64,000 bases of DNA from Oligoflexia bacterium. Its GTDB lineage: Bacteria; Bdellovibrionota_C; UBA2361; SZUA-149; DAOLCO01. Both the position numbers and the translations under genes were made by a program. The notes below the pieces were generated by a model. The model searched no databases. It was not told the DNA's origin and saw only the letters and a list, made by a program, of their open reading frames with translations. Within the stretch, counting starts at the first letter, position 1, and the number at the start of each line of letters is the position of its first letter. The DNA lies in assembly GCA_035327825.1 (NCBI GenBank), contig DAOLCO010000004.1:5950-69949 (forward strand), given 5' to 3'. Of this stretch, positions 4,883 through 23,327 are shown in pieces.

Positions 4883-6034
4883 TCATACCCCATACTTTTT
4901 ACAAAAATCCATAAAAGGAATTATCTTCAGATTATCATCAATTTGCCTTGATTCTTCACCAACATGCACTTGATAAAATTTAGGGATATTTGTTCTCTTT
5001 CTGAAGTAATCAAGATGAGGCGAGAGGTTTAGGGAATCAGAAAATTTTGCTTCAACAGCAAATTCAGGTTTTTTATTTTTAAGAACTACAAAATCAACTT
5101 CTCTTGCGTTTGTGTCACGAATATATCGTAACTCCATCTTATGTCCTTCAGTATCTTCAAGGAAATGGCAATAGGAAAGCAGGTGACTTGCAACAAGATT
5201 TTCAAAACGTATTCCGGGGTTTTCGATTTGTGTCCAGTCCCAAAGATAAATTTTTTGTTCTTTTTTAACTGCCTTTATCTTAGGAGATCCAAATGGTGGA
5301 ACTAGAAATGAATAATATAAAGAACCTAAAATTCCAATCCACCTCTTTGAGGTTTTAAAATCTATTTCAAGGTCATTAGCTATGCTACTCATGGAGAGTG
5401 GAGACCCTACTCTTCTTGGAAGCTCCTCAGCCATTTGTTCTAGTTTATCAAGGTCCTTGACGGTATATAGATCTCTCAAGTCATCTTTTACAAGTCTCCC
5501 GATACGTTGGGTGTGCCACCTTCTGAGGTCTCTCTGATCTTTTGAAGATAACATTTCCGGGAAGCCACCATACTCCAAAAGCAGATCAAGATTATTTCTG
5601 CTATATCCCAGTTCTCCCAATGTATAAGGACCAAGTCTGTAATAGAAATATCTTCCAAGTAGAGAATCTCCTCCCTTTCTGTAATGATCAAGCCTTGCAG
5701 AGCCTGTGATTAAGAATTTATGTGAATGCTTAAGAGTGTCATAGAAGCCTTTAATGAGATTTCTCCATCCCTTTGACTTATGAATTTCATCAAGAACAAT
5801 CAAGTTCTGTTCACTTGGCCATTCTCTATTTCGAATTTTTTTTCTATGTTCAGCAAGATCCCAATTGAGATACCCAGGATGACCATCCGAGTAATTTTCT
5901 ATAAGGGATTGCGCCAGGGTAGTTTTCCCTATCTGTCGAGGACCTCCCAGAAAAACCATTTTCTTTTCAAGGTCTTGGGTAATATACGGTAAAATTTTTC
6001 TTTGTGGTAAAACTGGCATGAGTCTATTATCCAT
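4883..6034 (-). CDS. AAA+ ATPase, DUF4143 family
   Basis: Walker A GGPRQIGKTTLAQ near the N-terminus. Overall layout matches the AAA_14/DUF4143 family. Confidence 0.7.
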   Translation of the reverse strand: MDNRLMPVLPQRKILPYITQDLEKKMVFLGGPRQIGKTTLAQSLIENYSDGHPGYLNWDLAEHRKKIRNREWPSEQNLIVLDEIHKSKGWRNLIKGFYDTLKHSHKFLITGSARLDHYRKGGDSLLGRYFYYRLGPYTLGELGYSRNNLDLLLEYGGFPEMLSSKDQRDLRRWHTQRIGRLVKDDLRDLYTVKDLDKLEQMAEELPRRVGSPLSMSSIANDLEIDFKTSKRWIGILGSLYYSFLVPPFGSPKIKAVKKEQKIYLWDWTQIENPGIRFENLVASHLLSYCHFLEDTEGHKMELRYIRDTNAREVDFVVLKNKKPEFAVEAKFSDSLNLSPHLDYFRKRTNIPKFYQVHVGEESRQIDDNLKIIPFMDFCKKYGV

Positions 6035-6292: not shown

Positions 6293-8545
6293 CTACTTTA
6301 ACAAACCAGGTACGACAAATTGAGGCAAGGTGTTGGTGTTTCTTTTAAGCCTGGTTGTTGTACCGAATATAAGGGCATTTCCTGTTGGCGTGACCCTGAC
6401 TGTTCCATAAGAATTTGCTATCGTACCAAATAATCCAAAATCATGAAGATTAACTTCCTTACTTTCAAACGGTGCAAATGACATGGTTCCACTTGCTCCG
6501 GAGCTTGATTGTGAAGCTATGAGAATGTTTGCTGATCCAGAAAGGGCAGCTGTATTATGTAATCTTAATCTACTTTCCATTGACAGAAAAAGGTTATAAC
6601 TGCCATTTAAAATACTACTTCCGGACGTTACCTCCTGAGTTCCACTGATTGAAGATATTGAACCAGAGACAGGATCTCTGAAATAAAACATTGATTGAGA
6701 AGCAAGGGGAGTTCCACCAGTCGGAGTTATGCTTCCAAATCCAATACTTCCAGCGGGCAGTATTTGAGATGTATTTAAATGAAACTGAGAGTATGGATTA
6801 AGCCCAATAGTCTGATTACTTAGTAAGTTACCAGATTCACTGAAAATCTGAACCTGGGCAGAATTTCCCTGACTTGAGGGATTTACAAGTTCAATCCAGT
6901 TCTGATGTGTGTCCCTGTCTCCAACAGGAAAATAATGAGTCCCATTAAGACCTTTGGTTGCTACCAAAGGAAAGGCAAAGTTAAATGCAGTTCCTCCAGT
7001 TTTATAACCATAGCGAACCAGTTGGGCACTGTATTTTGCATTGATATCTACGGGAACTATTTCAAGAAGTCCAACATTACCTGGTCCAGGACTTACATGT
7101 CCACCATCTATATCTGCCCGATTTCTGCTGGCAAGAGAAATATTTGTTTCAGATAAAAGTACACCTGACTGATTATACTTTTTTACAAGAAATGATTTAG
7201 TGCCAGTATCGAGATTAACAACTGAAAGCCAGTTAGCAACAAGATTTGATGTTTCCCCAGGGTTAAAACTTGGCTGAAATGTATTAAAGCTCACTGAGCT
7301 TTTGTTGGTTATTGGAGGAGCAAATGGTAATGCATATGCAAAGTCAAAATCAGTAAAGCTGCCACTGACTTTAGGTTTATAATAACTGATTCGTCCGCTA
7401 ACATTACTCGATATTTGAACCACACCATAGGAGTCTGTACTGTATCCACTTAATTGATTTAGAATAACATCAAACTGCTGTCCAGCAGGAACTGAAAATG
7501 AATTGGTTGAGACATGAGTCCCTGCAGCATTAAAGAGATTCACTTTTGCTGTTACTGCACTTCCACTAGTATTTTGAATCTCAGCAATATTTACTAAACC
7601 AATAAAACCATTCCATAAACCATAATCACCATCTGTCTCACTTAAAGGCTCACTTGGCGTAACTGAAACAGGAGGCGGAGGATTGCCCGATACTGGGCTG
7701 CTGGATGTCGGAGTGTACTCGTTAATCCAGCTAAGATAATGCGGGACTCTGGCCCAGACACCAAATTTATTTGGAAGGGCGCATCCTTCTCCAAAACTTG
7801 TAGCGCCAATCAGAAGTGGTGCATTAGTTCCACCAATAACCAGTGGCCCTCCGCTATCTCCCTGACAGGCATCCTTTCCTCCTCCCTGAACCCCAGCACA
7901 TACCATTCCGGCAGTAATTGAATTACCATACATGGTATTACATGCGTTATTTGTAATTACCTGCAAATCAACCTGAAGAAGTAGTGGAGATGAAGAACCA
8001 CCTGAACTTGTAGTTCCCCATCCGATAGCTGTGCTTACAAGTCCTGCAAGTTCTGATGAGGGATCAGCTATACCAATAATTGTTCCTGTGTTTGATGGAG
8101 ATGCGAGCTCAAGAAGAGCAATATCATTGTTACTTGTGTTTTCATTATATTGAGGATGGGGGATAATCCTTTTAACATTGATTGTTTCCCCGCCATTTTG
8201 CCTGAGATCATGAAGTCCTATTCCTACTTCCATACTTTGAGGGGTCTCTTCAGCTATGCAGTGCGCTGCAGTTACAACCCACGTGGTTGCAATTAGGGAA
8301 CCTCCGCAAAACTGGCGATTAAATTTATTACCGCTACCTTTACTAAAAAGCCCAACCATAAAAGGCCATGAACCAGGACTAGCTTCAATCCCGCCAACAA
8401 TTCTTGGACGAATTACATCATCAGGATTTGATGCATAAGAATCTGTTCTAAGTTGAATGAAGGAAAGATTAACTAAAAAGAGAAAGATATAAACAGGTTT
8501 GAATAATTTATGTGTCATAAACCTTGATACTCCAGGTTTTTTCAA
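6293..8545 (-). CDS. secreted trypsin-like (S1 family) serine protease with long C-terminal extension
   Basis: Signal peptide, IVGG start, catalytic triad contexts (TAAHC, DIALLEL, GDSGGPL). A Pro-rich linker is followed by a ~450-aa S/T/G/N-rich region. Confidence 0.8.
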   Translation of the reverse strand: MKKPGVSRFMTHKLFKPVYIFLFLVNLSFIQLRTDSYASNPDDVIRPRIVGGIEASPGSWPFMVGLFSKGSGNKFNRQFCGGSLIATTWVVTAAHCIAEETPQSMEVGIGLHDLRQNGGETINVKRIIPHPQYNENTSNNDIALLELASPSNTGTIIGIADPSSELAGLVSTAIGWGTTSSGGSSSPLLLQVDLQVITNNACNTMYGNSITAGMVCAGVQGGGKDACQGDSGGPLVIGGTNAPLLIGATSFGEGCALPNKFGVWARVPHYLSWINEYTPTSSSPVSGNPPPPVSVTPSEPLSETDGDYGLWNGFIGLVNIAEIQNTSGSAVTAKVNLFNAAGTHVSTNSFSVPAGQQFDVILNQLSGYSTDSYGVVQISSNVSGRISYYKPKVSGSFTDFDFAYALPFAPPITNKSSVSFNTFQPSFNPGETSNLVANWLSVVNLDTGTKSFLVKKYNQSGVLLSETNISLASRNRADIDGGHVSPGPGNVGLLEIVPVDINAKYSAQLVRYGYKTGGTAFNFAFPLVATKGLNGTHYFPVGDRDTHQNWIELVNPSSQGNSAQVQIFSESGNLLSNQTIGLNPYSQFHLNTSQILPAGSIGFGSITPTGGTPLASQSMFYFRDPVSGSISSISGTQEVTSGSSILNGSYNLFLSMESRLRLHNTAALSGSANILIASQSSSGASGTMSFAPFESKEVNLHDFGLFGTIANSYGTVRVTPTGNALIFGTTTRLKRNTNTLPQFVVPGLLK

Positions 8546-10926: not shown

Positions 10927-13578
10927 ATGAAGATTTCCCGTGAATGGTTACTGGAATTTGTTGATTTTTCTGATTTATCCGGAGAGGATTTTTCCGAACT
11001 TATTACAACTCGAGTTGCCGAAGTTGAAGAATGTTACAAAGTTGGTACTCCAATTGAATCTGCTGAAGTAGCAGAAATCCTGGAGTTTTCTCCTCATCCT
11101 GAGCGTAATAAATTATCTGTAGTAAGACTTGCTACTCTGGCTGGTGTGCAGACTCTTGTATGTGGGGCAAATAATCTTAAAAATGGAGCTCAGGTTTTGT
11201 ATGCTCCCCCTGGTTCATCCGTAAGAAAACCTGGTCGTCCAGCAGAAGAAGAAGAGCTTGTTACAGTAGAAGCAAGAGAGTTTGCCGGAATAATGAGTGT
11301 GGGCATGATTCTTTCCGAGTCTGAGCTTGGAATAAGTCCTGATCATGAGGGGATTTTACTACTTAATGAGTTAACTGAAAGTTCTTCCTCGTCGAGTTTT
11401 AATTCTGAAAACAAATTCAAAATCGGAGATAAAGCCGCATCAATATTTCCAGGTCCGGATTTAATAATAGACATTGATAACAAGTCGCTAACTCATCGTC
11501 CAGACCTTTGGAGTCACTTTGGCTTTGCTAGAGAAATTTCAGCTATTCTTAAGCGTCCGCTGAAAAAGCCGATGGATTTGTTCTCTGATGGAACATATTT
11601 TAACTATTACGATAAATCTAAAGTTGATACTGAAGAATTTAATTCTCTTATCGGAAAAGAAAAGCCAATCAGCCCATTTAGTGTAAGAATCGGAAGTGAA
11701 TCTGGATCAAAGCGTTTAAGTTTTTTTTATATTGGAGGGTTATCTAATAGAACTTCACCATTATGGATAAGACGACGACTGTTTATGATAAATGCAGGGA
11801 TAAGAAATTTACTTGTAGATTGTAGTAATTATGTACTTCATGAAACAGGACAACCAAATCATGCATATGATCCTTCAAAACTTTCAGGTAAAACTCTTGA
11901 GGTAAGAAAAGCTGTTCAAGGTGAAAAATTCACCGGTCTTGATCTTGTTGATAGAATCCTTGATAGCAGAGATATTGTTATAGCAGATGATGAAAAAGCT
12001 CTTGCGCTAGCAGGTATTCTTGGTGGTAATTCCTGTTCTGTAAGCGATGATACAAGGGAAATTCTACTTGAAAGTGGTCACTTTGATCCTGTATTTGTCA
12101 GACAGACAGCAAAGCGACATCAAGTCAGGACGGACTCTTCAAATCGATTTGAAAAAAGTATTTCACCTTTTCAAATTCCTTTAGCTCCAATAAGATTTAT
12201 TGATATTTTAAAACGGGCGGGAGAGAATCCCGAATTGCCTTATGCATGGAGCGACAACTTTCCCTTAAAGCCGGCTCCAGTCATGGTTCAGTGCAGGCCA
12301 GAATATATAAGAAGCAGATTGGGTGGAGTTCCTGAGACTGATAAGGAGATTTCCGATATCTTGTCAAGACTGGGTTTCGGCGTTGATAACAATACAGAAA
12401 CCTTATCTAATTCTTATGAAAGTTCCACCAGATTAACCGTTCCTTATTACAGAGCTACCAGTGATGTTACAATCGAAGATGATCTGGTTGAAGAGGTTGG
12501 AAGGATAATAGGATTTGATCGTGTTCCTGAGAAGGCCCCACTTATTGAGGCTATAGGAAGTGCAAGAACGCTAACTGGTAATGCCGAAGTAACTTTAAGA
12601 GAAAGTCTTTCTGCTCAAGGTCTGGTTGAGTTATCTAATGACAGTTTTTGCTCTATTAGCGAAGCTCAGGAGTTGGGTTACTGTGTAGATGATGCAATTC
12701 GTCTTTTAAACCCAGTTGATCAAAACTCAGATGCTGTCCAGACAACACTTGTCCCAGGTCTTCTTTCTGTAGCCAGATCAAATTCTCGTCATTTTGCGAA
12801 ATGCTCTGGTTTCGAGATTGGCAGGAGTTATCATTTATCCGGTTCTTGTGATGACTCAAAAATATTATCAGGGGATTCCTCCATAACTGATACCAATGTG
12901 ATGGAAAGGCGCCTTCTTGGATTATTCACTATGGGTGATATTCAAGAGCGCTCATGGGGAGAGCCAGAAGTATCTAGTGGTATTTTATTTTACAGCCTTT
13001 CTACCGTGATAAGAAGAATAGCTCGTGTTTTAGGTGGTGGCGAATTTGAGCTTGTTCCTTTAAAAGAGGAAATAAACAGGAGCAAGTCCCAGGATTTTAC
13101 ATCTCTCAAGAGCTGGATGCATCCGTTTAGGTCAGCCTCTATCAAAATTGGAAACCTAAATGTTGGAGTGATTGCTGAGGTAAGGCCAAGTGTGATTAAT
13201 ATAAGGCAGTCCAGGGTTGTTATTGCTGAAATTGATATTGAAGCATTAATGGCGACTCGAGTTAATTCTCAAGCGACATTTCTCCCTATATCACGCTATC
13301 CTGAGAGTTTTTTTGAGATATCAATTGTAATGCCTCTTGAGGAAAGGTTTTCAAGAATTAAATCAACTTTTTATGCAAATCTTGGTGAACCCTGTTTAAG
13401 ATCTATTTTGCCAGTAGCAGTTTATCAAGGTGCTCCACTTCATGAATCTGAAAAGAGCTTATCAATTCGATTTGTATATAGTAAGGAAAGTGGTACTGTT
13501 ACAACTGAGGAACTTGAGTCTTTTCGCTCATCTGTCCTTAATGTCGTACAAAAATCAAAATACAGATTAAGAAGTTAA
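10927..13578 (+). CDS. pheT: phenylalanyl-tRNA synthetase beta subunit
   Basis: Typical PheT N-terminus MKISREWLLEFVDF, ~880 aa, follows pheS. Confidence 0.92.
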   Translation: MKISREWLLEFVDFSDLSGEDFSELITTRVAEVEECYKVGTPIESAEVAEILEFSPHPERNKLSVVRLATLAGVQTLVCGANNLKNGAQVLYAPPGSSVRKPGRPAEEEELVTVEAREFAGIMSVGMILSESELGISPDHEGILLLNELTESSSSSSFNSENKFKIGDKAASIFPGPDLIIDIDNKSLTHRPDLWSHFGFAREISAILKRPLKKPMDLFSDGTYFNYYDKSKVDTEEFNSLIGKEKPISPFSVRIGSESGSKRLSFFYIGGLSNRTSPLWIRRRLFMINAGIRNLLVDCSNYVLHETGQPNHAYDPSKLSGKTLEVRKAVQGEKFTGLDLVDRILDSRDIVIADDEKALALAGILGGNSCSVSDDTREILLESGHFDPVFVRQTAKRHQVRTDSSNRFEKSISPFQIPLAPIRFIDILKRAGENPELPYAWSDNFPLKPAPVMVQCRPEYIRSRLGGVPETDKEISDILSRLGFGVDNNTETLSNSYESSTRLTVPYYRATSDVTIEDDLVEEVGRIIGFDRVPEKAPLIEAIGSARTLTGNAEVTLRESLSAQGLVELSNDSFCSISEAQELGYCVDDAIRLLNPVDQNSDAVQTTLVPGLLSVARSNSRHFAKCSGFEIGRSYHLSGSCDDSKILSGDSSITDTNVMERRLLGLFTMGDIQERSWGEPEVSSGILFYSLSTVIRRIARVLGGGEFELVPLKEEINRSKSQDFTSLKSWMHPFRSASIKIGNLNVGVIAEVRPSVINIRQSRVVIAEIDIEALMATRVNSQATFLPISRYPESFFEISIVMPLEERFSRIKSTFYANLGEPCLRSILPVAVYQGAPLHESEKSLSIRFVYSKESGTVTTEELESFRSSVLNVVQKSKYRLRS

Positions 13579-13592
13579 ATTTCTGCTCCTAT

Positions 13593-14096
13593 ATGCCTCA
13601 AACAAAAGAGAGAATTGATTCTGAGCAAAATCTGGAGGGTTTAGTTTGTAGGTCAATTACCCCTGATCTTGTCGACTACATATATAATCTTGAACAAAGA
13701 GTATACCCTAATGGCTGGTCCCGCGCATTGATAGAGTCTGAGTTTGATAAAGTAATTTCTTTAAGGCTTGGTCTATTTAACAGATATCAGTTGTTACTCG
13801 GTTATTCATTCAGTTATCTGATTGAAGATGAGTTACATTTATTGAATATTGCTCTGGATCCTGAATATCAGGGGCAGGGGCTTGGTACATATCTGTTATC
13901 TGAAATTATTTCTAAAGCTTCAGTTATGGGTGCCAGGGTTTCATATCTTGAAGTGAGAAGGTCAAACCAAAGGGCAATATCGCTCTATCGGAAGTTTGGT
14001 TATGTTGAAACGGCATATCGGAAAGCCTACTATCAGGATAATCATGAGGATGCCATTTTAATGGAAGCCGATATAGGTAGGGCATCTATTATCTAG
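13593..14096 (+). CDS. rimI: GNAT N-acetyltransferase, RimI-like
   Basis: LNIALDPEYQGQGLGTYLL ... LEVRRSNQRAISLYRKFGY ... HEDAILM aligns with E. coli RimI motifs. Confidence 0.7.
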   Translation: MPQTKERIDSEQNLEGLVCRSITPDLVDYIYNLEQRVYPNGWSRALIESEFDKVISLRLGLFNRYQLLLGYSFSYLIEDELHLLNIALDPEYQGQGLGTYLLSEIISKASVMGARVSYLEVRRSNQRAISLYRKFGYVETAYRKAYYQDNHEDAILMEADIGRASII

Positions 14097-14174
14097 TAAA
14101 TATCTATGGATTGACCATTTTGCTATTTTAATATATACTCCCCGGCATTATTACTAATTCCTGGGGCTGATATA

Positions 14175-15761
14175 ATGGGCAAAGTTAAAAAACAAGCTTC
14201 TTCACCTAAGTCGCCAAAATCACAGGCTAAAGCATTAAAGCCACAAAAAAAGGGTTCTAAAGCTTCTAAGGGTTTAAAATTAAAAAATAAAAAGCCTGAA
14301 AAATCTGTTTCCTCAAGAACAAGTGCTAAAAAGAAAGCTGTTTCTAAAAGTAATAATTCCAAAAAGGGTATTTCCAGCAAAAAGACCAAGGTTGCAGTAT
14401 CTTCCAGCCTAAAAAAGGGGGAGAAACAAAAGTCTGCCGTGAAGTCTACAGTTAAGCCTGCTAGTAATCCTGCTGGGAAGTCTAAAGTAAAATCTGCATT
14501 TGCCTCTGTTGGGAATTATAAGGATAAAAAGATTAATGCCAAGAAAGATCTTAAATCCCAATCATCAAAGTCTACCAAATCTCTCTCGACAGCTTCAAGT
14601 GTAAAGAGTTCAGTTAAATCTGAAAATTCAAAATCAAATAAATCTTCTATTAAAAAGACTGGTAGCCTTGGTGTAAGTAGTGTAGACTTCAGCACCTTCA
14701 AAGGAAGGGGTTCATCCACTCGTAAAGAAGCAGTTGGTGGACAGTTAACCGTTTCGGGAAATAAAGATAATATTATGCCTTTAAAGTCATCTGCTGATAA
14801 CAAATCTGATTCTTCAGAGGTAAATAACAAGCCTTTACTTTTATCAGCTAATGATGGGGCTCCTGCTGATGAGCCGATAAAGAGAAAACGGGGCAGACCT
14901 AGAAAGACCGATTCCTCTGGATCATCTGCTAATAAACTACAGGAAACAAAAGGAGTTCGGCGATTTGGTATGAACTATGGTAGGCCTGGTGTTGCCGCAG
15001 GCAGATACTCCTGGAGTGCAGAAACAGGAACTTCCCTTGTAGACAAACCAGCCAGTGAGAATAATTCATTACGCGGCAGTTCAAAATCGGAAATATCTTC
15101 TGATAACATTTATTCTTCAAACGGACGCTTTGAAACAAATGGCAAGTCTGCAACTGGTACTATTAATGGTCATTCAAGCAGAAGCAGAAAGGGCCTTAGC
15201 TCACAAATCACTGTTAGTAATAATTATAGTGATGAGGGTCTTGCAAATGGAGATTCTTCCGACGAAATCCCGATGATTGAGTTTATACAAGGCGATAAGG
15301 TGGTGTATCCGGCACATGGGTTGGGTAAAATAGATGCCGTACAGGTTCGAAATGTTGGTGGTACCCAGCAAAAATTTTATATGATTGTTATTGTTGAAAC
15401 TGGTATGAAGATAATGGTACCAGTAAGTCAGGCAAGAACAGTTGGTCTTAGGCGAGTTGTTGACACTGGTACTGTTGACAAAGTCTATGATATTCTTCGT
15501 GACAAGAATGTGGCCATAGACAATCAGACCTGGAATAGGAGATACAGGGAATATTCCCAGAAAATCAAAACAGGTTCGGTACTTGAAATTGCATCTGTTA
15601 TCAGGGATTTAACAGTACTAAAGATAGAGAAAGAACTTTCCTTTAATGAAAGACGTATGCTTGATACTGCTCAGGGTCTTTTAGTGAAAGAGCTTTCAAT
15701 AGCTAAATCAAGCTCTGAGGACAGCATAAAGGAAGAACTTGAGTTAATCTGTCAGCCTTGA
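14175..15761 (+). CDS. CarD/CdnL-family RNA-polymerase-interacting regulator with N-terminal histone-H1-like K/S-rich tail and an AT-hook
   Basis: C-terminal ~170 aa carries the CarD_CdnL_TRCF signature (FIQGDKVVYPAHGLGKIDAV...). N-terminal ~350 aa is K/S/A-rich low complexity with KRKRGRPRKT at ~14877-14906. Confidence 0.75.
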   Translation: MGKVKKQASSPKSPKSQAKALKPQKKGSKASKGLKLKNKKPEKSVSSRTSAKKKAVSKSNNSKKGISSKKTKVAVSSSLKKGEKQKSAVKSTVKPASNPAGKSKVKSAFASVGNYKDKKINAKKDLKSQSSKSTKSLSTASSVKSSVKSENSKSNKSSIKKTGSLGVSSVDFSTFKGRGSSTRKEAVGGQLTVSGNKDNIMPLKSSADNKSDSSEVNNKPLLLSANDGAPADEPIKRKRGRPRKTDSSGSSANKLQETKGVRRFGMNYGRPGVAAGRYSWSAETGTSLVDKPASENNSLRGSSKSEISSDNIYSSNGRFETNGKSATGTINGHSSRSRKGLSSQITVSNNYSDEGLANGDSSDEIPMIEFIQGDKVVYPAHGLGKIDAVQVRNVGGTQQKFYMIVIVETGMKIMVPVSQARTVGLRRVVDTGTVDKVYDILRDKNVAIDNQTWNRRYREYSQKIKTGSVLEIASVIRDLTVLKIEKELSFNERRMLDTAQGLLVKELSIAKSSSEDSIKEELELICQP

Positions 15762-15824
15762 TTTATTTCTAAAAGAGTTTTCTCTCTTTACGGAATCTTT
15801 AGTTAATCAGATCATGGTAGATAA

Positions 15825-16628
15825 ATGAGTGTTTGTATTTATCCCCAAAATATATGGGCTATTGTGCCTGCTGCTGGATCAAGCAGCAGAATGGGGTGTA
15901 CTCTAGAAGCTGAATCTGAAAAAGTATCAAGCAAGGTACTTATTCCTCTGGAATCATCATGGACAGTGCTTCATGAATCTCTTAAACAGTTATGGCTTTC
16001 TGGAGTCAGGGTTCTTGTAATCCCGACTAAGGTAGAGTTAATAGAAGAGATAAATAAAATTGCAATTGAAACAGGGGACTGGAATTATCTTAAGGTATGT
16101 CAAGGCGGGGAGACGAGAACGGATTCTGTATTAAACGCAGTTAGCTATTTAAAAGATTTACGAGAAAACACAGTTTGTCTGGATAATAGAAATCAGGATG
16201 AACCAATTGTTATTATTCATGATGCAGCTCGGCCATTTTGTAGTGTTTCCTTAATTGAAAAGGCAATTAAAATTTCAAGAATAGAGAAGCATGGCGCAGT
16301 TATTGGAGTTCCTGTTATCTCAACGATAAAAGAAGTTAATGGTGAAGGATTTATAACAAATACACCATTAAGAGAAAAATTATGGGAAGCTCAAACACCA
16401 CAGGTCTTTCCGTTTGACAATTTTGTTTTTGCTTACGAATCTTTAAAAAACTCCGGACACATATTCTATGATGATTCTTCAGTATATGAATCTGCAGGGT
16501 TTACAGTTAAAATTGTAAGAGGAGAATATCAAAATTTGAAAGTTACAACTCCAATAGATATTGAAGTTGGAAGAATAATTTATAAAACAATAAGATTAAA
16601 AGGTGGAAAGGGTTCTAAACCTGAATAA
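15825..16628 (+). CDS. ispD: 2-C-methyl-D-erythritol 4-phosphate cytidylyltransferase
   Basis: AIVPAAGSSSRMG, GGETRTDSVL, HDAARPF, TPQVF and NLKVTTPID align with IspD motifs. It carries a ~25-aa insertion after the P-loop. Confidence 0.75.
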   Translation: MSVCIYPQNIWAIVPAAGSSSRMGCTLEAESEKVSSKVLIPLESSWTVLHESLKQLWLSGVRVLVIPTKVELIEEINKIAIETGDWNYLKVCQGGETRTDSVLNAVSYLKDLRENTVCLDNRNQDEPIVIIHDAARPFCSVSLIEKAIKISRIEKHGAVIGVPVISTIKEVNGEGFITNTPLREKLWEAQTPQVFPFDNFVFAYESLKNSGHIFYDDSSVYESAGFTVKIVRGEYQNLKVTTPIDIEVGRIIYKTIRLKGGKGSKPE

Positions 16629-16674
16629 TTAAAAACCCACTCCACCGATAATATGAATCAGGATCAGGGTTAAT

Positions 16675-17031
16675 TTAACCTTGATCCGGACTGTTTTCGT
16701 CGCTGGTATTTTCGCTCATATTCTGAGAATAAAGTTTGTTATACCGATCTTCTGAAAGAAATACATCAAAAGGAATAGCAGAGGCTGCCGCTCCAAAGTT
16801 ATTTTTGATTTCTTCCAGCTTTTTCTCAGACAAATTGCCTTTTCCGCGCCTTAGTTCGGACGCATAACAAGGAGAAATTCCAAACTCTTTTGCGATAAAG
16901 GCATCGAGAATACCTTCTTTGGTTGGCACTCTGTATCCGGGCTTCTTAAATCTGAAAATACCACGAAAACATAGCAGTCTTCGTTCTTTATGCAATTCAC
17001 TTGAAGGTGGAGCTCTCTTTTTCTTACTCAT
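16675..17031 (-). CDS. small basic hypothetical protein, possible HTH DNA-binding
   Basis: Likely start at MSKKKR; the ORF track extends to 17085. ILDAFIAKEFGISPCYASELRRGKG looks helix-turn-helix-like. No family recognised. Confidence 0.35.
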   Translation of the reverse strand: MSKKKRAPPSSELHKERRLLCFRGIFRFKKPGYRVPTKEGILDAFIAKEFGISPCYASELRRGKGNLSEKKLEEIKNNFGAAASAIPFDVFLSEDRYNKLYSQNMSENTSDENSPDQG

Positions 17032-17161
17032 TATAAAATACCTAAAAAAACCATGGAACTCTTTCCATCCATACTTTTCACTCAAAAAAAGTCAAAATTA
17101 TGTATTAAAAAGAAACAGGTGACATCCCTTTCACCTTTGAAAAACATTTAGACACAAATTC

Positions 17162-17887
17162 CTACATTTTGGAAAGTAATCTCTTTACATGACTAAGACG
17201 TAACTCGAGATTGGTCAGTTCCTGTCGTAGTATTGAGACTTTTTCGCTAATATCTGAAATATCAACTTCCTTAATCTCAGGTGCAGCAAGAACCACTTTT
17301 GCCAGTCCAGGCAGTTTTTCTTTCAGCTCATCTGGTAAAGGTATTGAGTCATTATGCGAACTTCCAAGTAACTGAAAGAAAATTGCCCAAAGCTCAATTA
17401 ATGAAAACTCGGCAGCTCCTGATAAAGAAAGATCAGAAAGCCAGAGATTTTCTCCTTCACTTCGAATAAATGCGTTCTTTCCAACAAGGATACCATCTGG
17501 TGACGTTTCAAATGGTGGATCAAAGATACTTTTTGATGGCGTAATTTCCTTAACAAACTCAGAATGAAGAAGAGTTCTTGCAGCTTGTATCAGGAATTTA
17601 TTTGTCATGTTCTGAAACGGAAGCCAGTATCCTGGAGCAAGCTCTCCTTGAAGACCCGGAATGTTACATGTTTTGAATGCATCAAATTCATGCCGAGCGG
17701 ATTGAAGCAAAAGAAAAAGCTCATTTGGATTTAGTCGCAGGGGATCATTCTCATCGTAAGCAAATTCAAGGTCTTCATAAGAGTCTCCTTGAATTATAGA
17801 TTCCACGATTTTGTATCCTGAACTTTTACTCTGAACAAGTGCAAGAGCCCGATCATCGTCTAAGTCGACAAATGAAATTGGAGTCAT
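17162..17887 (-). CDS. hypothetical protein (island gene E)
   Basis: Clean 241-aa ORF with no recognisable motifs. A hairpin (17951-17987) separates it from the upstream GHKL gene. Confidence 0.5.
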   Translation of the reverse strand: MTPISFVDLDDDRALALVQSKSSGYKIVESIIQGDSYEDLEFAYDENDPLRLNPNELFLLLQSARHEFDAFKTCNIPGLQGELAPGYWLPFQNMTNKFLIQAARTLLHSEFVKEITPSKSIFDPPFETSPDGILVGKNAFIRSEGENLWLSDLSLSGAAEFSLIELWAIFFQLLGSSHNDSIPLPDELKEKLPGLAKVVLAAPEIKEVDISDISEKVSILRQELTNLELRLSHVKRLLSKM

Positions 17888-17940
17888 TAAAAACCTCCTT
17901 TATAACCAAAATTAAGTAGATGTCACGAAATTTTAGTCCT

Positions 17941-17987
17941 TATATAAAAGGGCGAGATGCGGTTAATATCTAAAACCTCATCTCGCC
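17941..17987 (-). terminator. hairpin (GGCGAGATG / CATCTCGCC, 19-nt loop) followed by CUUUUAUAUA on the minus strand
   Basis: 9-bp perfect inverted repeat 75 bp downstream of the GHKL ATPase stop. The loop is large, so only moderate confidence as an intrinsic terminator. Confidence 0.4.
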
Positions 17988-18025
17988 GGGAAAATCTCCC
18001 AAGAACTAAGAATAGGGACGTGAGA

Positions 18026-19576
18026 CTATTGACCCTTCTTTTTCTTGTTCCTGTGCAAAGTAATCTGCCGTTGTGTCGGAAGCTTGATCCGCCCGTGAGT
18101 GAACCAAAGTAGCACCGAAGGATGCTCTATACAGTTTACAAGGATTGGGAGAGGAGGGAACTCGCCATCGTGGAGAGCTCCGTATCTGCTGATCTGGCTT
18201 AGTACCTCGATAGCGAGAAGAGCCTTTGCTAGTTCTCTCTTTTCATTGCTTCTTCCGCATTCTTCGAAGATAGTTTTCACTGGTCCATATGATTCATTAA
18301 TTGTAATCAATCGAGGATTAGCAACAATAGGATCATTCTCCTGACCGTCTCGCTGGAAAACAATCTTGGGCGGAGTCTTTGTTTTTCTTCCAGTACCAGG
18401 AGGATTTTTAGGGGGCTTTTTACCACCTTTACCTCCACCTTTTCCACCTCGATGTCCATCGTCTTCGTCGTCGTCACCCTCTTCGGAGGTTTTTTTTCGA
18501 CCACCGCCAAGGGTCAGTTCAAACTCGTCAATTAAATAATCGAGCAAGTCCTGATGAATGACGTCGTCAACATGCATTGCATTGTATGCATCCAGAAATT
18601 CATGAAGAGATTCAGGCAGATCTTCTGCAACGATCTCTGAAGCCACGGTATCATCGAAACCGGTTATCTTACTCCTGAATATATCGAATTTAAAGCCTTT
18701 AACAGCCTCAATAATGAGGATTACCTCAGACTGACCGCAGTAGATTCCCGCGGTGTTGACCTTGGCAATTCCACCTCTGTGACTATCCCACCACTCTACA
18801 CACTCTCCATCGGCAGCAAAGCTAAAAGGTGGTGCACTCCATGGACTTACGAGTTCACTTTGCCTTCGGCTTGCCTTTTGAGGACGAATCCCCCAATGAA
18901 GATTAAAAGCTGGACAGGTCGTAGTGCCTTTATAGGCTTTGGTCCCGTTGACCTCGCAAAGAGCTTTGAGAGAGCCAAGGGCACCTACGATCCGAATCTC
19001 TGAACTTCTATCAACGGCGGTAACAACAACCTCGCCAGGAATTGAGAGGTAACGTTGATTCAGAAACTCAATTATCTTCGTTATGCTAAAATTAGCACTC
19101 TTAAGGTGAACTGAAGTGCCTGAGCGCTTATCGAGGGAATCACGTGGAATTGAAACAAATTTTCCAACTCCGTGCTCCGTATCGGGAAGACCCTCAAAGT
19201 GCGTACCATCATCTGTAGCTTTCAGGATGATCTGATAAGCCTGATTATTTTCAGGCGACCTTTGGCAGTGGCTTGTGAATACTGCAGGACCACAAAGGGC
19301 ACTTGCAATCTTGGAGCCGATTCCCATTCTTTGGGCTGCTCCTCTTCCCAATTTACTGGAGCTAGATCCAAGTCCAGTCAGATAAAGGCGCATTTCCTTT
19401 GGAGTCATTCCTTTTCCATTGTCCCGAATCAGGATACCGCCAGATGGGTGTTCTTCAATCCGAACACATGTTGCACCACCGTCGATGGCATTTTGTACCA
19501 TCTCTCGGATTGCAATTAGCGGGTCAATGTCTTCGGGAAGAAGAAATGCCGCAGAAACCAGGTTAAGCTTAGCCAT
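18026..19576 (-). CDS. GHKL/Bergerat-fold ATPase (HATPase_c_3; MORC/Hsp90/MutL-like) with disordered G/K/D-rich linker
   Basis: N-terminal motifs EMVQNAIDGGAT (N-box), IRDNGKGMT (G1) and MGIGSKIAS (G2). C-terminal GGGRKKTSEEGDDDEDDGHRGGKGGGKGGKKPPKNPPGTGRKTK linker. Possibly GC-elevated: ~41-51% in four hand-counted 100-nt windows. Confidence 0.75.
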   Translation of the reverse strand: MAKLNLVSAAFLLPEDIDPLIAIREMVQNAIDGGATCVRIEEHPSGGILIRDNGKGMTPKEMRLYLTGLGSSSSKLGRGAAQRMGIGSKIASALCGPAVFTSHCQRSPENNQAYQIILKATDDGTHFEGLPDTEHGVGKFVSIPRDSLDKRSGTSVHLKSANFSITKIIEFLNQRYLSIPGEVVVTAVDRSSEIRIVGALGSLKALCEVNGTKAYKGTTTCPAFNLHWGIRPQKASRRQSELVSPWSAPPFSFAADGECVEWWDSHRGGIAKVNTAGIYCGQSEVILIIEAVKGFKFDIFRSKITGFDDTVASEIVAEDLPESLHEFLDAYNAMHVDDVIHQDLLDYLIDEFELTLGGGRKKTSEEGDDDEDDGHRGGKGGGKGGKKPPKNPPGTGRKTKTPPKIVFQRDGQENDPIVANPRLITINESYGPVKTIFEECGRSNEKRELAKALLAIEVLSQISRYGALHDGEFPPLPILVNCIEHPSVLLWFTHGRIKLPTQRQITLHRNKKKKGQ

Positions 19577-19589
19577 TTAAGGCCTCCAT

Positions 19590-19698
19590 ATTTAAAAACA
19601 GGAAAAAACGCTTTTTAACCGCAACTCGCGGACACTTGATTTTTAGCTGATGATTTATAGAAAAAAGGTAAACACCAAGTGTCCGCGCAAAAGTTGCG
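19590..19698 (-). terminator. imperfect inverted repeat plus U-run, then GGAGG RBS for the GHKL gene
   Basis: GCAACTCGCGGACACTTG (19621-19638) pairs with CAAGTGTCCGCG...AGTTGC (19676-19697). On the minus strand it is followed by GCGUUUUUUCCUGUUUUU, with GGAGG 9 nt upstream of ATG 19576. Confidence 0.35.
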
Positions 19699-19831
19699 CG
19701 AATCTACCCTGTAAATAAGAGAAAGAGCGATTATGATTACGTTTTGTGATAAGCCGAAAAAGCATATCATAAAACGTAGCGTGTGGAAAACCCACCCGCT
19801 ACTTCGGTAAAGTAGCAAAAACCTAAATAAA

Positions 19832-20758
19832 CTAAGGAGTGGCAGGAGGAGAAAGATTCTGTTCTCTTGCCTTTAGCTCATTAGCCCAGCTTTGAAGTCG
19901 CTGTTGTCTTTTTTCTAGAAGGCCAAGGTGAAGAGTGATTTCTTCCTGATCCGGAGCAATACCTAAAGGACTTGATCTTGCTTTTGCTAGTTCAATTTCA
20001 AGAGCCTTATTTCGTTCTCGAAGCTCTTCAAGCTCTTGAAGAAGGGCAAGGACTCCTTCCTGATATTCGTTCTCAGATTTTCTGAGAGTTTCAATCAATG
20101 AGTTAATTTCCTCCGTGTTAAAAGAAGAAGTAACTGGTATAGGTTGAGCCGATTCTTCTTCTAATAACAAAGAAGGTTCTTCACGATTCAGGATAACGGG
20201 ATCAGGTATTCGAACTCCATCAATATCCCAGCAATCTAGATCATGAACAGGTAGCTGAGGGACCTGATAAATCCCCATTATAGGATCAGAAAAGAGGCGA
20301 ACTGCAAGTTCACACCAAAGATCAAACGATGCGTCAACAGTCCTTCCCTTACTACTTGTAAATTTGAAGTTTCCGGACTTGTGTCTAACGGTTATATGAC
20401 CAATCACAAGGGATTTTTCAGAACTACCAATGTCTTCCCAGGGATTCATTTTTTTCGAGATATCAATGCCCTGCCTTTTTAATTTTCGTAGAGCCTCCTC
20501 GAAATTCCTGATAACCTTCTCCTTGGAGCTGTTACCTGGATTAAAGAGATACTCATTGGTAGCAACAAGCTGATCAGGGACAAGTTTGTTATGATAGTTA
20601 AACCAAAGAACAAAATTGCACCAGCGTGCAAGAATCCTGATGTTCATTACAACATCTCTTGAAAATGTAGGATTCACTTCCCGAAAGACCCATGAGTTAT
20701 CAGATTCCTGCCTTTTGAAATGAAATCCGTTAATGGTCACATGCTCTTTTTGAGTCAT
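19832..20758 (-). CDS. hypothetical protein with C-terminal coiled coil (island gene C)
   Basis: 308-aa ORF. The C-terminal ~80 aa is heptad-like (LQELEELRERNKALEIELAKA). No known family recognised. Confidence 0.5.
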   Translation of the reverse strand: MTQKEHVTINGFHFKRQESDNSWVFREVNPTFSRDVVMNIRILARWCNFVLWFNYHNKLVPDQLVATNEYLFNPGNSSKEKVIRNFEEALRKLKRQGIDISKKMNPWEDIGSSEKSLVIGHITVRHKSGNFKFTSSKGRTVDASFDLWCELAVRLFSDPIMGIYQVPQLPVHDLDCWDIDGVRIPDPVILNREEPSLLLEEESAQPIPVTSSFNTEEINSLIETLRKSENEYQEGVLALLQELEELRERNKALEIELAKARSSPLGIAPDQEEITLHLGLLEKRQQRLQSWANELKAREQNLSPPATP

Positions 20759-20968
20759 TTTTTCTCCTTTATAGGTTAAAACCCTTTTTAATTTTCCACA
20801 CGCACATTTTGATTTGCAATTTTAAAAAGATAAAATCAAAATATGCGTATATTCGCTCTTCTACTCAAAGTAATAATTTTGCTGCAGATTCAGCCAGTTT
20901 ATATAAAACTGGGCGATTGAATTTTGTAATAAAACCGCCCAATGTATGTGAAAATTAACGAGTAGCTC

Positions 20969-22078
20969 CTAAGCTCGAATTATTTCCTCAAGTACTCTGA
21001 AACTTTGGTCTTTGAGATGAGGGAATACTGTTCCTTCCATAAAGATTTTAAGAAGTTCCATTGGCTCCAGTTGCCGGGAAGGACTTGCAACTTTTTCGAT
21101 TGACTTATGGACAGGAGTTTTTTCCTGTTTAAAGCTGACCAAGTCGCTATCCATGATTTGATTAAATGAAAGGATTGGATCTTCAATTTCGTTTGATCCA
21201 ATAATGACCAAAAGAATAAAGCCAAATTGCGAAGGTTCAAGGTTGTCCGAAATTAGAAATTTGCCTTCTGATGCAATGAAAGTATCATCATTTTCAGATT
21301 GCTCACTTCTTAGCTCATCTACAAAACCATGAGGCGTGATGTCAAAGGGAGTCTCAAGTGTTTCTTCGATTCGTAGAATGAGAAGTTTCCTCTTAATTAA
21401 CAGTGTATCATCTTTCGTGAAGAGAATATCCAGAGGGATTTGAAAATCAAAGAGTTCCAAAAGTTCTTCTGGCAACACTTCTCGAAAATCCGAATGACCC
21501 TGGTCTTTCAATTTTGAAAGTATATACTCACGAAGTTCCACCAGAGAACCGAATTCTAGCAGTTCTCCGCTCTTATCTTGTGCCAGTGATTGCTTTTCTG
21601 AAGGCTCACCATAGACCAGAGCAACTGACGAGGGATCAAAGAAGTAATTTTTACCCCTTATAATTTCTCCTGAGAGAACAACCAGGGCGACGTTTATCCA
21701 GTCAGTCCATGGAGCTGATCGAGATAAAATCTTCCATGGAAGTGAGGTAGATTCACGTTCAATAGTTACTATTCCGGAACTAACCTTTAGAAGAGTTCCT
21801 GAATTCACTTGATCTGTTCCAGATCTGAATTGAGCAAGATATTTTGCCTTTTTTAGAAATCGGCTCTCTAGTAACTTTTTAAAAAGAGTTAAAAGATCTT
21901 TGTGAGATAAGTGGTAAGTAGTATGTCCTGCGACTTCATGATAATCCATTCTCCCCCAATCTCGTCTAACAGTTCGAGACTGATACTCGTAAAACATTGA
22001 GTGATCATCATCGGATGTCTTAGGTCCTAGGATGACCTGGATGTGAGGGAGCTTGACTCCTCGTGGAGCTATGCGCAT
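20969..22078 (-). CDS. hypothetical protein (island gene B)
   Basis: 369-aa ORF with acidic stretches. No recognisable catalytic motif. Confidence 0.5.
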   Translation of the reverse strand: MRIAPRGVKLPHIQVILGPKTSDDDHSMFYEYQSRTVRRDWGRMDYHEVAGHTTYHLSHKDLLTLFKKLLESRFLKKAKYLAQFRSGTDQVNSGTLLKVSSGIVTIERESTSLPWKILSRSAPWTDWINVALVVLSGEIIRGKNYFFDPSSVALVYGEPSEKQSLAQDKSGELLEFGSLVELREYILSKLKDQGHSDFREVLPEELLELFDFQIPLDILFTKDDTLLIKRKLLILRIEETLETPFDITPHGFVDELRSEQSENDDTFIASEGKFLISDNLEPSQFGFILLVIIGSNEIEDPILSFNQIMDSDLVSFKQEKTPVHKSIEKVASPSRQLEPMELLKIFMEGTVFPHLKDQSFRVLEEIIRA

Positions 22079-22216
22079 TTTTAAATCCTTTCTTAAAAAT
22101 ATTATTCAATCACCCGTGATAAAAAAGGGTGCTTGAATCTGCAGCATCTACTCTTTATAATTTCAAAGATCAGCTAGTTTTTGTGAAAGGATGCATTTAA
22201 ACCTTTTTACTGATGC

Positions 22217-22262
22217 CAGACTCGGGGACTTGACGAATTGTCTGGTCCCCGAGTTGGCTTTT
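22217..22262. terminator. strong GC-rich hairpin (ACTCGGGGAC / GTCCCCGAGT, 10 bp) followed by TGGCTTTTT on the plus strand
   Basis: Perfect 10-bp inverted repeat with a 15-nt loop, between island genes A and B. The T-run is on the plus strand while the flanking genes are on the minus strand. Confidence 0.45.
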
Positions 22263-22279
22263 TACGAGCAGCGAAATTC

Positions 22280-23230
22280 TTAAACAGTTTTTCTCTCGTT
22301 TCTTATCTGATGAACTCTCTTTCGGAAATTATTGGCATAAAGGCGTTTTCTTCCCGCCTTGCTTTTTTCCTGAAAATCCCTTAGTTCATCCCAAAGCTCT
22401 TTAAGGGTCATTCCATTATCTCCGACTTTACCGTGCTCATTTTTTGTCCTTCTTTCAATGTCTCGGAGCACATCTTCAACATCGGAAAGCTCAGTGCATT
22501 GTCGGATTGAAGCCAGAATTCTGGAGAAGCTTACACCATCAGAGTAGTATCCACCTTGACCTCTCTCTTCCAGAACTTCTTTGGTTTCTAGTGAAAGTTT
22601 GGGCACTCCCCTGGAAATGAGAATTTGATCAATACAGTGAGCAAGATGAGATGCTCCCCCAGCTCGTTCCATTAATTCGGTAACAAGCTTTAGCTCCTTG
22701 TCAATATCATTTGACATCTCACCAACCAGTGCTTTTAGTTCATCAAGTTCAAGCCGTTCTTTTGAAATTTCTTCTCGTTTCTGTTGAAGTTCAGCCTGAA
22801 TTTCCGAACGTTCTTTTAGAAGTTCAGAAAGTTCAGCTTTTAAAGTCTGAATCTGTTCTGCAAGCTTATTAACTTCAGCACGCTTTTGAACAATATCCCC
22901 ATCAATTTTTTGTTCCTGAGGGCTTGTTTCAATTTTTGGTTCCTGTGATGAACCGATTGGCAAAGTTTCGACAAATGAGCGAATCATATCCATGCATTCT
23001 GGCATGATACGACCCTTCAATTCCAGCTGTAACTTTTCGCGAAGAACGGATTCCATCTTCTCCGCAGAGAAACGTTCTGGAACCCTCGCTTCATGCTGTT
23101 GAAGAAGAGCAGAACGAAGATTTGCTAAAGTCTGCGCTTCAAATGAAGATACACTTTTGCACCATGTTTTTACCTCAGGTTGAGACAGGAGCCATACCAC
23201 CGATCCTAATACTTCCGGATTTTTTGTCAT
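22280..23230 (-). CDS. hypothetical coiled-coil protein (island gene A)
   Basis: Long central coiled coil (QKRAEVNKLAEQIQTLKAELSELLKERSEIQAELQQKREEISKERLELDELKAL). Likely start at MTKNPEVL; the ORF track extends to 23290. Confidence 0.5.
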   Translation of the reverse strand: MTKNPEVLGSVVWLLSQPEVKTWCKSVSSFEAQTLANLRSALLQQHEARVPERFSAEKMESVLREKLQLELKGRIMPECMDMIRSFVETLPIGSSQEPKIETSPQEQKIDGDIVQKRAEVNKLAEQIQTLKAELSELLKERSEIQAELQQKREEISKERLELDELKALVGEMSNDIDKELKLVTELMERAGGASHLAHCIDQILISRGVPKLSLETKEVLEERGQGGYYSDGVSFSRILASIRQCTELSDVEDVLRDIERRTKNEHGKVGDNGMTLKELWDELRDFQEKSKAGRKRLYANNFRKRVHQIRNERKTV

Positions 23231-23276
23231 TATATATCCTTTTTGTAAAAACCTATCCATTAAAACCAAAATGCAT

Positions 23277-23327
23277 CCTGCTCCAAACAAGAAAGTAGTA
23301 AATACTACTTTCCACTTTTGAAGCAGG
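23277..23327. promoter_or_regulatory. palindromic operator-like site upstream of island gene A, in the divergent promoter region shared with the sensor kinase
   Basis: Perfect 9-bp arms GAAAGTAGT-AAAT-ACTACTTTC (23291-23312). They are nested in an imperfect outer repeat CCTGCTCCAAA...TTTGAAGCAGG. An AT-rich ~280-bp intergenic region follows. Confidence 0.4.

Follow-up and report, generated by a model that had tools for sequence, protein, structure and literature searches.

CdnL is a factor that binds the β subunit of RNA polymerase (RNAP) and stabilizes open promoter complexes (RPo) at σA promoters, such as those of rRNA. We describe here a cdnL gene in a 64-kb window (the whole stretch of DNA analyzed, from contig DAOLCO010000004.1 of an Oligoflexia bacterium) whose product, the tailed CdnL, carries 366 extra N-terminal residues, including an AT-hook, ahead of the CdnL core. 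The closest described proteins are the standalone CdnL/CarD proteins, including Myxococcus xanthus CdnL (2LWJ) and those of Mycobacterium, Thermus and Caulobacter, which are ∼160–170 aa long and share with the tailed CdnL a two-domain core (RNAP-interacting domain, RID, and five-helix C-terminal domain), the RNAP-binding Phe, the Trp and the R-R-x-R patch, and a gene position directly upstream of ispD. In CdnL, the RID binds the RNAP β lobe, and RPo is stabilized by the C-terminal domain, whose contacts with promoter DNA fall at about −14 to −10 (PMC8156234; PMC4182748). In one report, CdnL/CarD regulators are described as not reading DNA sequence, with an effect that is set by basal promoter kinetics (PMC10232725).

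A second design is that of myxobacterial CarD, a dispensable paralogue that coexists with CdnL and in which an N-terminal RNAP module is followed by a C-terminal tail made of an acidic region and then four RGRP hooks (PMC8156234). Through its disordered HMGA-like domain, CarD engages the minor groove of AT tracts, such as those at −63 and −77 of PQRS, and human HMGA or histone H1 can stand in for this domain; M. xanthus CdnL, which has no HMGA-like domain, fails to bind DNA for that reason (PMC8156234). CarD-type fusions are said to be found only in myxobacteria, and AT-hooks to be rare in bacteria (PMC8156234). The tailed CdnL is like CarD in joining a CarD/CdnL-type module to a basic, predicted disordered region with an RGRP hook and an adjacent acidic stretch, but its tail lies at the N-terminus and has a single RGRP, followed by a weakly acidic linker, its core is CdnL-type rather than CarDNt-type, and its gene occupies the housekeeping cdnL locus without an adjacent carG. 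The host phylum also differs from that of CarD; it is the Bdellovibrionota, given the NCBI label Oligoflexia (a class of that phylum) on the organism of a public protein, P0169, that matches the core. Indeed, a first-pass annotation made from the window sequence had pointed out that the domain order is reversed with respect to M. xanthus CarD, and this holds.

Similar comparisons can be made with the eukaryote-like tails themselves. Anaeromyxobacter dehalogenans CarD, which has a histone-H1-like C-terminal domain, and eukaryotic H1 tails likewise have a Lys-rich, disordered basic segment, and the former likewise has a CarD-family module. The HMGA-like and H1-like versions of CarD are interchangeable (PMC8156234), which parallels the hook-rich and Lys-rich versions of the tail found among the relatives of the tailed CdnL (clade A, described below). 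H1 tails are rich in Lys, Ala and Pro (K ∼30–40%) and have S/TPKK motifs, whereas the tail of this protein is Lys/Ser-rich, lies at the N-terminus and has one SPKSPKS; neither Linker_histone nor HC2 of Pfam matches it at E values up to 10. The label ‘histone-H1-like’ given in the first-pass annotation is thus apt for composition but not for family membership, and, judged from sequence, the resemblance is compositional only. With HMGA1 the tailed CdnL shares a Lys/Arg-flanked R-G-R-P core, predicted disorder and a nearby acidic stretch, and we take its KRKRGRPRK to resemble the first HMGA1 hook; it differs in that a single hook is fused to a bacterial RNAP-binding domain, and its non-CdnL matches have hook-only similarity with no sign of common descent.

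We consider that the gene is probably, although far from certainly, a housekeeping CdnL with an N-terminal tail of ∼366 residues that would be disordered, polycationic and DNA-binding. We infer the binding of RNAP, the binding of DNA by the tail and an effect on promoter choice by analogy with the systems above. An N-terminal AT-hook tail on CdnL is undescribed in the literature we searched, and would be a convergent, mirror-image version of the CarD design; nothing relevant was found on CdnL N-terminal extensions, on Bdellovibrionota AT-hooks or on CdnL since 2021 in the open literature.

The CdnL core and its N-terminal tail

The gene, at 14175–15761 (+), is a single open reading frame (ORF) that runs from ATG to TGA and encodes a protein of 528 aa (56.7 kDa, pI 10.2); the frame is open from 14157, and its earliest start codon is the ATG at 14175. 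The folded C-terminal part is ∼160 aa according to Pfam, and its identification as a CarD_CdnL domain, originally made from the translated letters alone, is borne out by Pfam, by a search of PDB sequences and by Foldseek analysis of an AlphaFold2 (AF2) model. The best solved relative of the core is M. xanthus CdnL (2LWJ, E = 2.4e-51, 52% identity), with the Streptomyces, Mycobacterium and Thermus CarD/CdnL proteins next, while the match to the N-terminal domain of M. xanthus CarD (2LT1) has an E value of 3.2e-6. In the AF2 model, obtained with a 50-sequence alignment, aa 366–528 have a per-residue confidence (pLDDT) of 84–97 (∼90 or above in the RID) and form four β strands and then helices. 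The modeled core aligns with Thermus thermophilus CarD with TM scores of 0.74–0.75, and the RID matches CdnL/CarD structures.

The residues that are important in M. xanthus CdnL are also retained. We mapped them by subtracting 365 from the query numbering, the offset in the 2LWJ alignment, and examined them in an alignment (A1) of 20 sequences, comprising the tailed CdnL and 19 close relatives. F36, which is needed for RNAP binding since F36A abolishes it (PMC4182748), corresponds to F401; the conserved Trp W88 corresponds to W453; R90/R91/R93, which are essential for RPo stabilization, correspond to R455/R456/R458; and F125 and R128/K129, both mapped by mutagenesis, correspond to F490 and R493/R494. 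Each of these is invariant in A1, and every mutagenesis-mapped position of M. xanthus CdnL is kept in the tailed CdnL. Because the match to 2LWJ far exceeds that to 2LT1, and because the gene lies in a rimI-cdnL-ispD context, the core is, by these comparisons, a CdnL orthologue and not a myxobacterial CarD.

The tail is strongly basic, but not uniformly so. The first-pass annotation had called the first ∼350 aa extremely rich in Lys, Ser and Ala. We find that Lys and Ser are indeed abundant in aa 1–180 (K 27%, S 24%, P 3%; pI 10.9), where each 30-aa window has a net charge of +5 to +10, but that Ala is not (8%), and that the extreme stretch is ∼180 rather than 350 aa long; aa 181–365 are rich in Ser, Gly and Asn and only mildly basic. 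The part of the tail preceding a WSAE motif, described below, has a net charge of +54 and a pI of 10.4, and the most positive 60-aa window among the 57 ORFs of at least 100 aa in the 64 kb is found in this tail. No tandem DNA repeats were found in the tail-coding DNA, so a recent slippage array is not the source of its low complexity. In two AF2 runs, aa 1–365 had a pLDDT below 50 (∼50–59 at the hook and at the RYxWSAETG motif) and no secondary structure. The tail (aa 1–366) is predicted to be intrinsically disordered. The linker between the WSAE motif and the RID is 90 aa in the tailed CdnL compared to 32–41 aa in all 19 relatives, and it has a net charge of −3, compared to −2 to −10 in the relatives.

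Two elements of the tail are fixed in A1, in which the tails otherwise vary greatly in length and sequence. The two strings singled out in the first-pass annotation, KKQASSPKSPKSQAKALKPQKKGSKASKGLKLKNKK and KRKRGRPRKT, are present at aa 5–40 and 236–245, respectively, and the second contains a canonical AT-hook, both by Pfam and by its conservation: KRKRGRPRK is invariant in 20 of 20 sequences and is the most conserved single element of the tail. The 13-residue Pfam AT_hook model (aa 236–246) scores 16.7 bits when run on the whole tail and 19.8 bits when run on the hook peptide by itself, with a cutoff of 17.4, and no other Pfam domain model matched the N-terminal 365 aa. The second element is RYxWSAETG, with the residues that precede it; G260, R263, Y278, W280, S281, A282 and E283 are invariant, and the whole R277–G285 stretch is invariant or nearly so. 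A search of 1.84 billion representative sequences with a 68-aa query spanning the hook and RYxWSAETG matched only members of the CdnL clade and unrelated multi-hook or repeat proteins; by this search, the module made of the two elements is confined to clade A. Docking of RYxWSAETG on the CdnL core was not supported, as the motif had a pLDDT of ∼50–59 and no structure in either AF2 run. FKGRGS (aa 175–180) aligns, in a low-complexity region of A1, with a KRGRGRPRK hook of a multi-hook sister subclade, and is a possible remnant of a lost hook.

Translation of the tail and choice of start codon

The first-pass annotation had argued from ∼1 kb of stop-free sequence that the tail is translated. A run of 365 stop-free codons is expected by chance, at the local base composition, with P ∼1e-11. 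To this can be added a comparison of synonymous codons in six genomes, the window and five other loci (L001–L005, from uncultured Bdellovibrionales, Bdellovibrionota or Proteobacteria metagenome-assembled genomes). The hook and RYxWSAETG core are encoded by varied synonymous codons, with AGA, CGA, CGT, CGG and AGG for Arg, AAA and AAG for Lys, GGC, GGT and GGG for Gly, and CCT and CCA for Pro. The two elements are thus fixed as protein while their codons differ, which points to purifying selection on the protein and hence to translation of the tail. Similarly, the tail frame remains open despite many indels across the 20 homologues. We conclude from these comparisons that the long, 528-aa form is likely to be real, as had been proposed.

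The public gene model differs. P0169, named ‘MAG TPA: CarD family transcriptional regulator [Oligoflexia bacterium]’ in NCBI/nr, has 162 aa and is 100% identical to aa 367–528. It comes from GCA_035324615.1, contig DAOLBI010000005.1, which equals window positions 11273–19760 except for one single-nucleotide difference and a run of N. That record begins cdnL at ATG 15273 (Met367), leaves ∼0.9 kb without annotation and places a 79-aa antisense ORF within the Lys-rich region. A start near the domain boundary, which the first-pass annotation had named as the observation that would count against it, is thus what the public annotation assumes, but that start comes from gene calling only and is not conserved in relatives. 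The codon equivalent to Met367 is GTA in L001, GTT in L002, GTC in L003 and GTA in L005, and is ATG only in L004; in L001, L002, L003 and L005, the nearest start-capable codon is 16–48 codons further upstream of the domain boundary. A conserved internal start that yields a tail-less isoform is therefore rejected for the clade, and an additional short isoform may be made in this one organism. A GGAG is found no closer than 20 nt upstream of ATG 15273, there is no Shine-Dalgarno-like sequence at a usable distance, and a consensus scan found no promoter-like site on the + strand upstream of this ATG.

A TTGACC-17-TATACT match is found in the 78-nt rimI-cdnL spacer, ∼36 nt before ATG 14175, although only its consensus supports it, and such matches are no more frequent than in shuffled sequences. 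The strongest promoter-like match in the region is TTGGCA-16-TATAAT (11/12; 14515–14542, −), which is antisense within the Lys-rich part of the cdnL coding sequence. This match may simply mirror the AT-rich sequence. Mycobacteria produce an antisense RNA, AscarD, against carD (PMC8820732). An Rfam scan of the whole window found three tRNAs only, none of them in the cdnL region.

Distribution and origin of the tail

The 19 close relatives in A1 have cores 82–90% identical to that of the tailed CdnL, and all have basic N-terminal extensions, of 135–385 aa. The order of elements in this hook clade (clade A) is a Lys-rich N-terminus, 0–3 extra hook-like repeats, the invariant hook, GxRRFG...RYxWSAETG, the linker and the CdnL core, and the net charge ahead of the WSAE motif ranges from +14 to +72. 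The tailed CdnL falls in a one-hook subclade with a long Lys/Ser stretch, and its 90-aa linker is unique to it. The sister subclades have 2–3 canonical GRP hooks and a degenerate RGRK repeat, compared to the four RGRP hooks of CarD; one subclade (P0010 and P0015–P0018) has three canonical GRP hooks and a degenerate KKRGRKPK, which, as read from the sequences, is an HMGA/CarD-like layout in mirror image. Hook-bearing loci have a GC content of 34–43%, compared to 53–55% for the hook-less tailed loci L030 and L081–L083, although the sample is small.

N-terminal extensions are not the rule beyond this clade. A first homology search had suggested that nearly all relatives are tailed, but this was overturned by a search with the core only and by examination of genome loci, most of which are tail-less; the first search overcounted tailed relatives because its word index was biased to Lys-rich sequences. 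Among the 120 closest cores in the core-only search, 88 have no more than 15 extra N-terminal residues, 13 have 16–40, 13 have 41–100 and 6 have more than 100, and nearly all of the extensions are basic and rich in Lys, Ala, Ser and Val. Only 6 of 80 GTDB species loci are tailed. Other tailed CdnLs, in clades B and C and at L030, have Lys-rich extensions of 30–290 aa without an AT-hook or RYxWSAETG. Clade B (P0020–P0027) tails are pure low complexity. Clade C (P0028–P0120) is large and separate, with tails of ∼150 aa that carry the motifs SLAERISKSxLVK, LKLVAK, VPVSKITRSE and VIxGxFG. Members of both clades carry only ‘Pseudomonadota bacterium’ labels. The clade C loci L082 and L083 (5001–5930) are directly upstream of ispD-ispF in genomes of ∼53% GC, and P0026 and P0052 are directly upstream of ispD. 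MAFFT had aligned the hook with SKITRSE of clade C, and RRFG with xRFG, but homology of the clade A and clade C tails was rejected, since hhalign of the tail profiles gave a probability of 0.2%. At L030 (5305–6489, Bdellovibrionaceae bacterium UBA2339), CdnL has a 231-aa N-terminal tail rich in Lys, Ser, Ala and Thr, which is probably a separate gain because the protein groups in the tree with tail-less Bdellovibrio-type CdnLs. Neighbor-joining bootstrap values are 71.5% for clade A and 98% for clade C, but are at most 19% at deeper nodes, which do not separate a single gain of tails from multiple gains. The CdnL tails of P0097, P0101 and P0114 have long (AKKTV/AKKAV)n arrays that match Pfam HC2, the chlamydial histone-H1-like nucleoprotein. 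Two further architectures, a C-terminal extension in P0067 and a CdnL-IspD fusion in P0029, look like frameshift or read-through artefacts and were set aside.

The locus itself is a conserved one (Table 1). Linkage of cdnL/carD to ispD is documented as frequent, though not obligatory (PMC2919716; PMC8820732), and here ispD begins 64 nt past the end of cdnL. The order pheS-pheT-rimI-cdnL-ispD is kept in the tailed loci L001–L005. The nearest relatives beyond the hook clade, with core identities of 73–80% in the core-only search, are tail-less and keep the GNAT-cdnL-ispD order; L085 and L086 also have pheT upstream. In L085–L088, cdnL has a start at the domain boundary, and the frame upstream of that start stays open for no more than 36 codons; L006–L008 and L013 are likewise tail-less. 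The presence of tail-less nearest relatives in the same synteny indicates that a housekeeping cdnL acquired the tail in situ, at its 5′ end. Thus the survey of homologue architecture yielded both a tailed clade and tail-less neighbors, and together with the CdnL-type core and the gene context it upholds the independent fusion that was initially proposed: as judged from these sequences, the tail was gained independently of CarD, at the opposite terminus, rather than passed down from a CarD-like ancestor. No second CarD/CdnL domain is encoded within the 64 kb. The rimI-like GNAT gene is directly upstream of cdnL in tailed and tail-less lineages alike (L001–L008, L085, L086 and L088); since this linkage predates the tail, a specific tie to acetylation of the tail Lys residues is speculation only.

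Table 1. Features of the tailed cdnL locus (coordinates in the window; L084 is the locus in the public record)
Feature	Coordinates	Strand	Basis
rimI-like GNAT acetyltransferase, 167 aa, upstream neighbor	13593..14096	+	Pfam Acetyltransf_1, E 4e-15
Promoter-like site TTGACC-17-TATACT	14111..14139	+	Consensus scan, 10/12
Spurious antisense ORF, 88 aa, Phe/Leu-rich (complement of AAA/AAG codons)	14123..14389	−	79-aa version in public record (L084 2851–3090); no Pfam match
Full-length coding sequence, tailed CdnL	14175..15761	+	ORF; homologue N-termini align as M-[AG]-[KRS]...
Lys/Ser-rich polycationic segment, aa 1–180	14175..14714	+	Composition, AF2; SPKSPKS at aa 10–16
Possible vestigial second hook, VDFSTFKGRGSSTRKE	14682..14729	+	A1 columns ∼281–310, low-complexity alignment
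Canonical AT-hook KRKRGRPRK, aa 236–244	14880..14906	+	Pfam AT_hook; A1
Clade-specific motif KGVRRFG...RYSWSAETG, aa 259–285	14949..15029	+	Conservation in A1
Ser/Asn/Gly-rich linker with acidic end, aa 286–366	15030..15272	+	Charge count; insertion visible in A1
Internal ATG (Met367), public-annotation start, 162-aa product	15273..15275	+	Identity to P0169
RID, CarD_TRCF_RID (PF02559), Tudor-like, aa 371–429	15285..15461	+	Pfam E 1.2e-14; includes F401
CarD_C helical domain (PF21095), aa 436–522	15480..15740	+	Pfam E 2.6e-28; W453, R455, R456, R458, F490, R493/R494
ispD, downstream neighbor	15825..16628	+	Pfam IspD, E 2.7e-42

Several other features of the window were recorded. Directly downstream of ispD are six consecutive ORFs (16675–23290, −; 136, 241, 516, 308, 369 and 336 aa) that have no Pfam, NCBIfam or PADLOC match, save a GHKL/MORC-type HATPase_c_3 domain in the 516-aa protein. 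For the three nearest ispD (136, 241 and 516 aa), no counterpart was found in the syntenic loci L001–L005, and the stretch looks like a lineage-specific insert. In the public record (L084, 6754–8305), a run of N splits the 516-aa GHKL ATPase into 235 and 277 aa, while the window is continuous there (18026–19576). Elsewhere, an ATPase with AAA_14 and DUF4143 domains (4883–6034, −) is a match (E 2.8e-45) to PDC-S01, a candidate defence system in PADLOC, and a 750-aa protein (6293–8545, −) combines an N-terminal trypsin domain (E 4e-61) with a long C-terminal part that has no Pfam family match at E ≤ 0.001.

Possible roles of the tail

If the protein works as we propose, its C-terminal 160 aa would act as in M. 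xanthus and mycobacterial CdnL/CarD, with the RID docking on the RNAP β lobe and the conserved Trp and Arg patch of the helical domain contacting the transcription bubble at its upstream edge. The tail would supply an autonomous DNA affinity that standalone CdnL lacks: the invariant AT-hook would insert in the minor groove of AT tracts, and the Lys/Ser-rich aa 1–180 would bind DNA electrostatically in the manner of histone H1 and HMGA tails. The tail might thereby hold CdnL on the AT-rich nucleoid (38% GC), anchor it to AT-rich promoter-flanking DNA, or both, and such tethering could strengthen or bias RPo stabilization. With 32–90 predicted disordered residues, the linkers would be able to extend to DNA at either flank of the complex. 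PDB entries 9E7V–9E88, of M. tuberculosis RNAP complexes, list an SMT3-CarD N-terminal fusion as the chain sequence, and this is weakly compatible with tolerance of N-terminal additions, as the tag may be removed before imaging.

Two alternatives concern the form of the product and the identity of the core. The public gene model would be right if ATG 15273 gave rise to the 162-aa CdnL as the sole product, the 1.1 kb ahead of it being an untranslated leader or a decaying relic, or, in a milder version, if long and short isoforms coexisted; P0169 is exactly aa 367–528, the Met lies 4 residues ahead of the RID here and at a similar position in L004, and CdnL proteins are mostly ∼160–170 aa long. 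However, this would leave 366 open codons upstream (P ∼1e-11) and motifs that are invariant as protein, with synonymous substitutions, in six genomes. The boundary codons of four of the five other loci are not start-capable, neither a usable Shine-Dalgarno-like sequence nor a promoter-like site precedes 15273, and the same model calls an implausible 79-aa antisense ORF, such that we find this explanation improbable. To an even greater extent we doubt that the protein is a myxobacterial-type CarD, either orthologous or horizontally acquired, with permuted domains and a CarG-like partner at promoters of extracytoplasmic function σ factors. The protein does combine the same two kinds of modules, the PF02559/PF21095 domains and a disordered region that has an AT-hook and an acidic stretch, but the core is far closer to CdnL than to CarD and its nearest relatives belong to the ordinary, tail-less CdnLs of Bdellovibrionota/Oligoflexia. 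Moreover, the gene occupies the housekeeping cdnL-ispD locus, its neighbors are rimI and ispD with no carG-like gene adjacent, and CarD and CarG are reported from myxobacteria only (PMC8156234). We give this last possibility almost no credence.

An alternative that we take more seriously, while still thinking it unlikely, is that the tail is translated but serves mainly in something other than DNA binding: in binding RNA, nascent rRNA or ribosomes, in polyphosphate binding or condensates, in control of stability or localization, or as an entropic spacer, with the AT-hook as an RNA- or protein-binding basic motif. Lys-rich disordered tails, such as the K-rich intrinsically disordered regions of small nucleolar ribonucleoproteins, reportedly act by binding RNA or by driving compaction. 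The tail of this protein has one hook only and is long and Ser-rich, other CdnL clades bear Lys-rich tails of 30–290 aa without any hook, and the invariant aromatic RYxWSAETG resembles a protein-interaction short linear motif more than a DNA-binding element. On the other hand, a Lys/Arg-flanked RGRP core is the canonical AT-hook of the DNA minor groove; here it is the most conserved tail element, is found in AT-rich genomes and is multiplied in sister subclades as an HMGA-like array with an acidic linker. The tail of CarD, the only analogue studied experimentally, binds DNA (PMC8156234). Some observations nevertheless weigh against a CdnL tethered to DNA by its tail. The model assigns no role to the conserved RYxWSAETG motif; the tailed CdnL has one canonical hook, compared to three in HMGA and four in CarD, and a lone AT-hook binds weakly; the tail is Ser-rich, not Ala/Pro-rich as in H1 tails, and has no H1 or HC2 match in Pfam; and NCBI annotates the short form, whose Met367 is present in this genome.

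If DNA tethering is nonetheless correct, a bolder version can be entertained, which we regard as speculative and rather unlikely to hold in full. In this small, uncultured lineage, the essential general initiation factor CdnL itself, rather than a spare paralogue as in myxobacteria, would have been turned into a chromatin-type architectural protein that gains promoter selectivity via AT-rich upstream DNA, possibly coupling nucleoid compaction to rRNA transcription; RYxWSAETG would be a new contact with RNAP or DNA, and the whole would be a second, convergent, CarD design.

The work flags a systematic annotation error, in which the protein is shortened to 162 aa and an antisense ORF is called in its tail, and it indicates that Lys-rich N-terminal CdnL extensions of 30–385 aa are frequent and labile across this part of the tree, a property unmentioned in the literature we searched. 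Its value lies in this correction and in a testable natural experiment rather than in a new principle. Tailed and tail-less orthologues that are 73–80% identical in their cores are found at the same locus, and their comparison bears on promoter choice and on the stability of the open complex. The joining of an RNAP-binding module to a eukaryote-like, disordered DNA anchor, reached at opposite termini in CarD and in the tailed CdnL, may thus be a recurrent solution.

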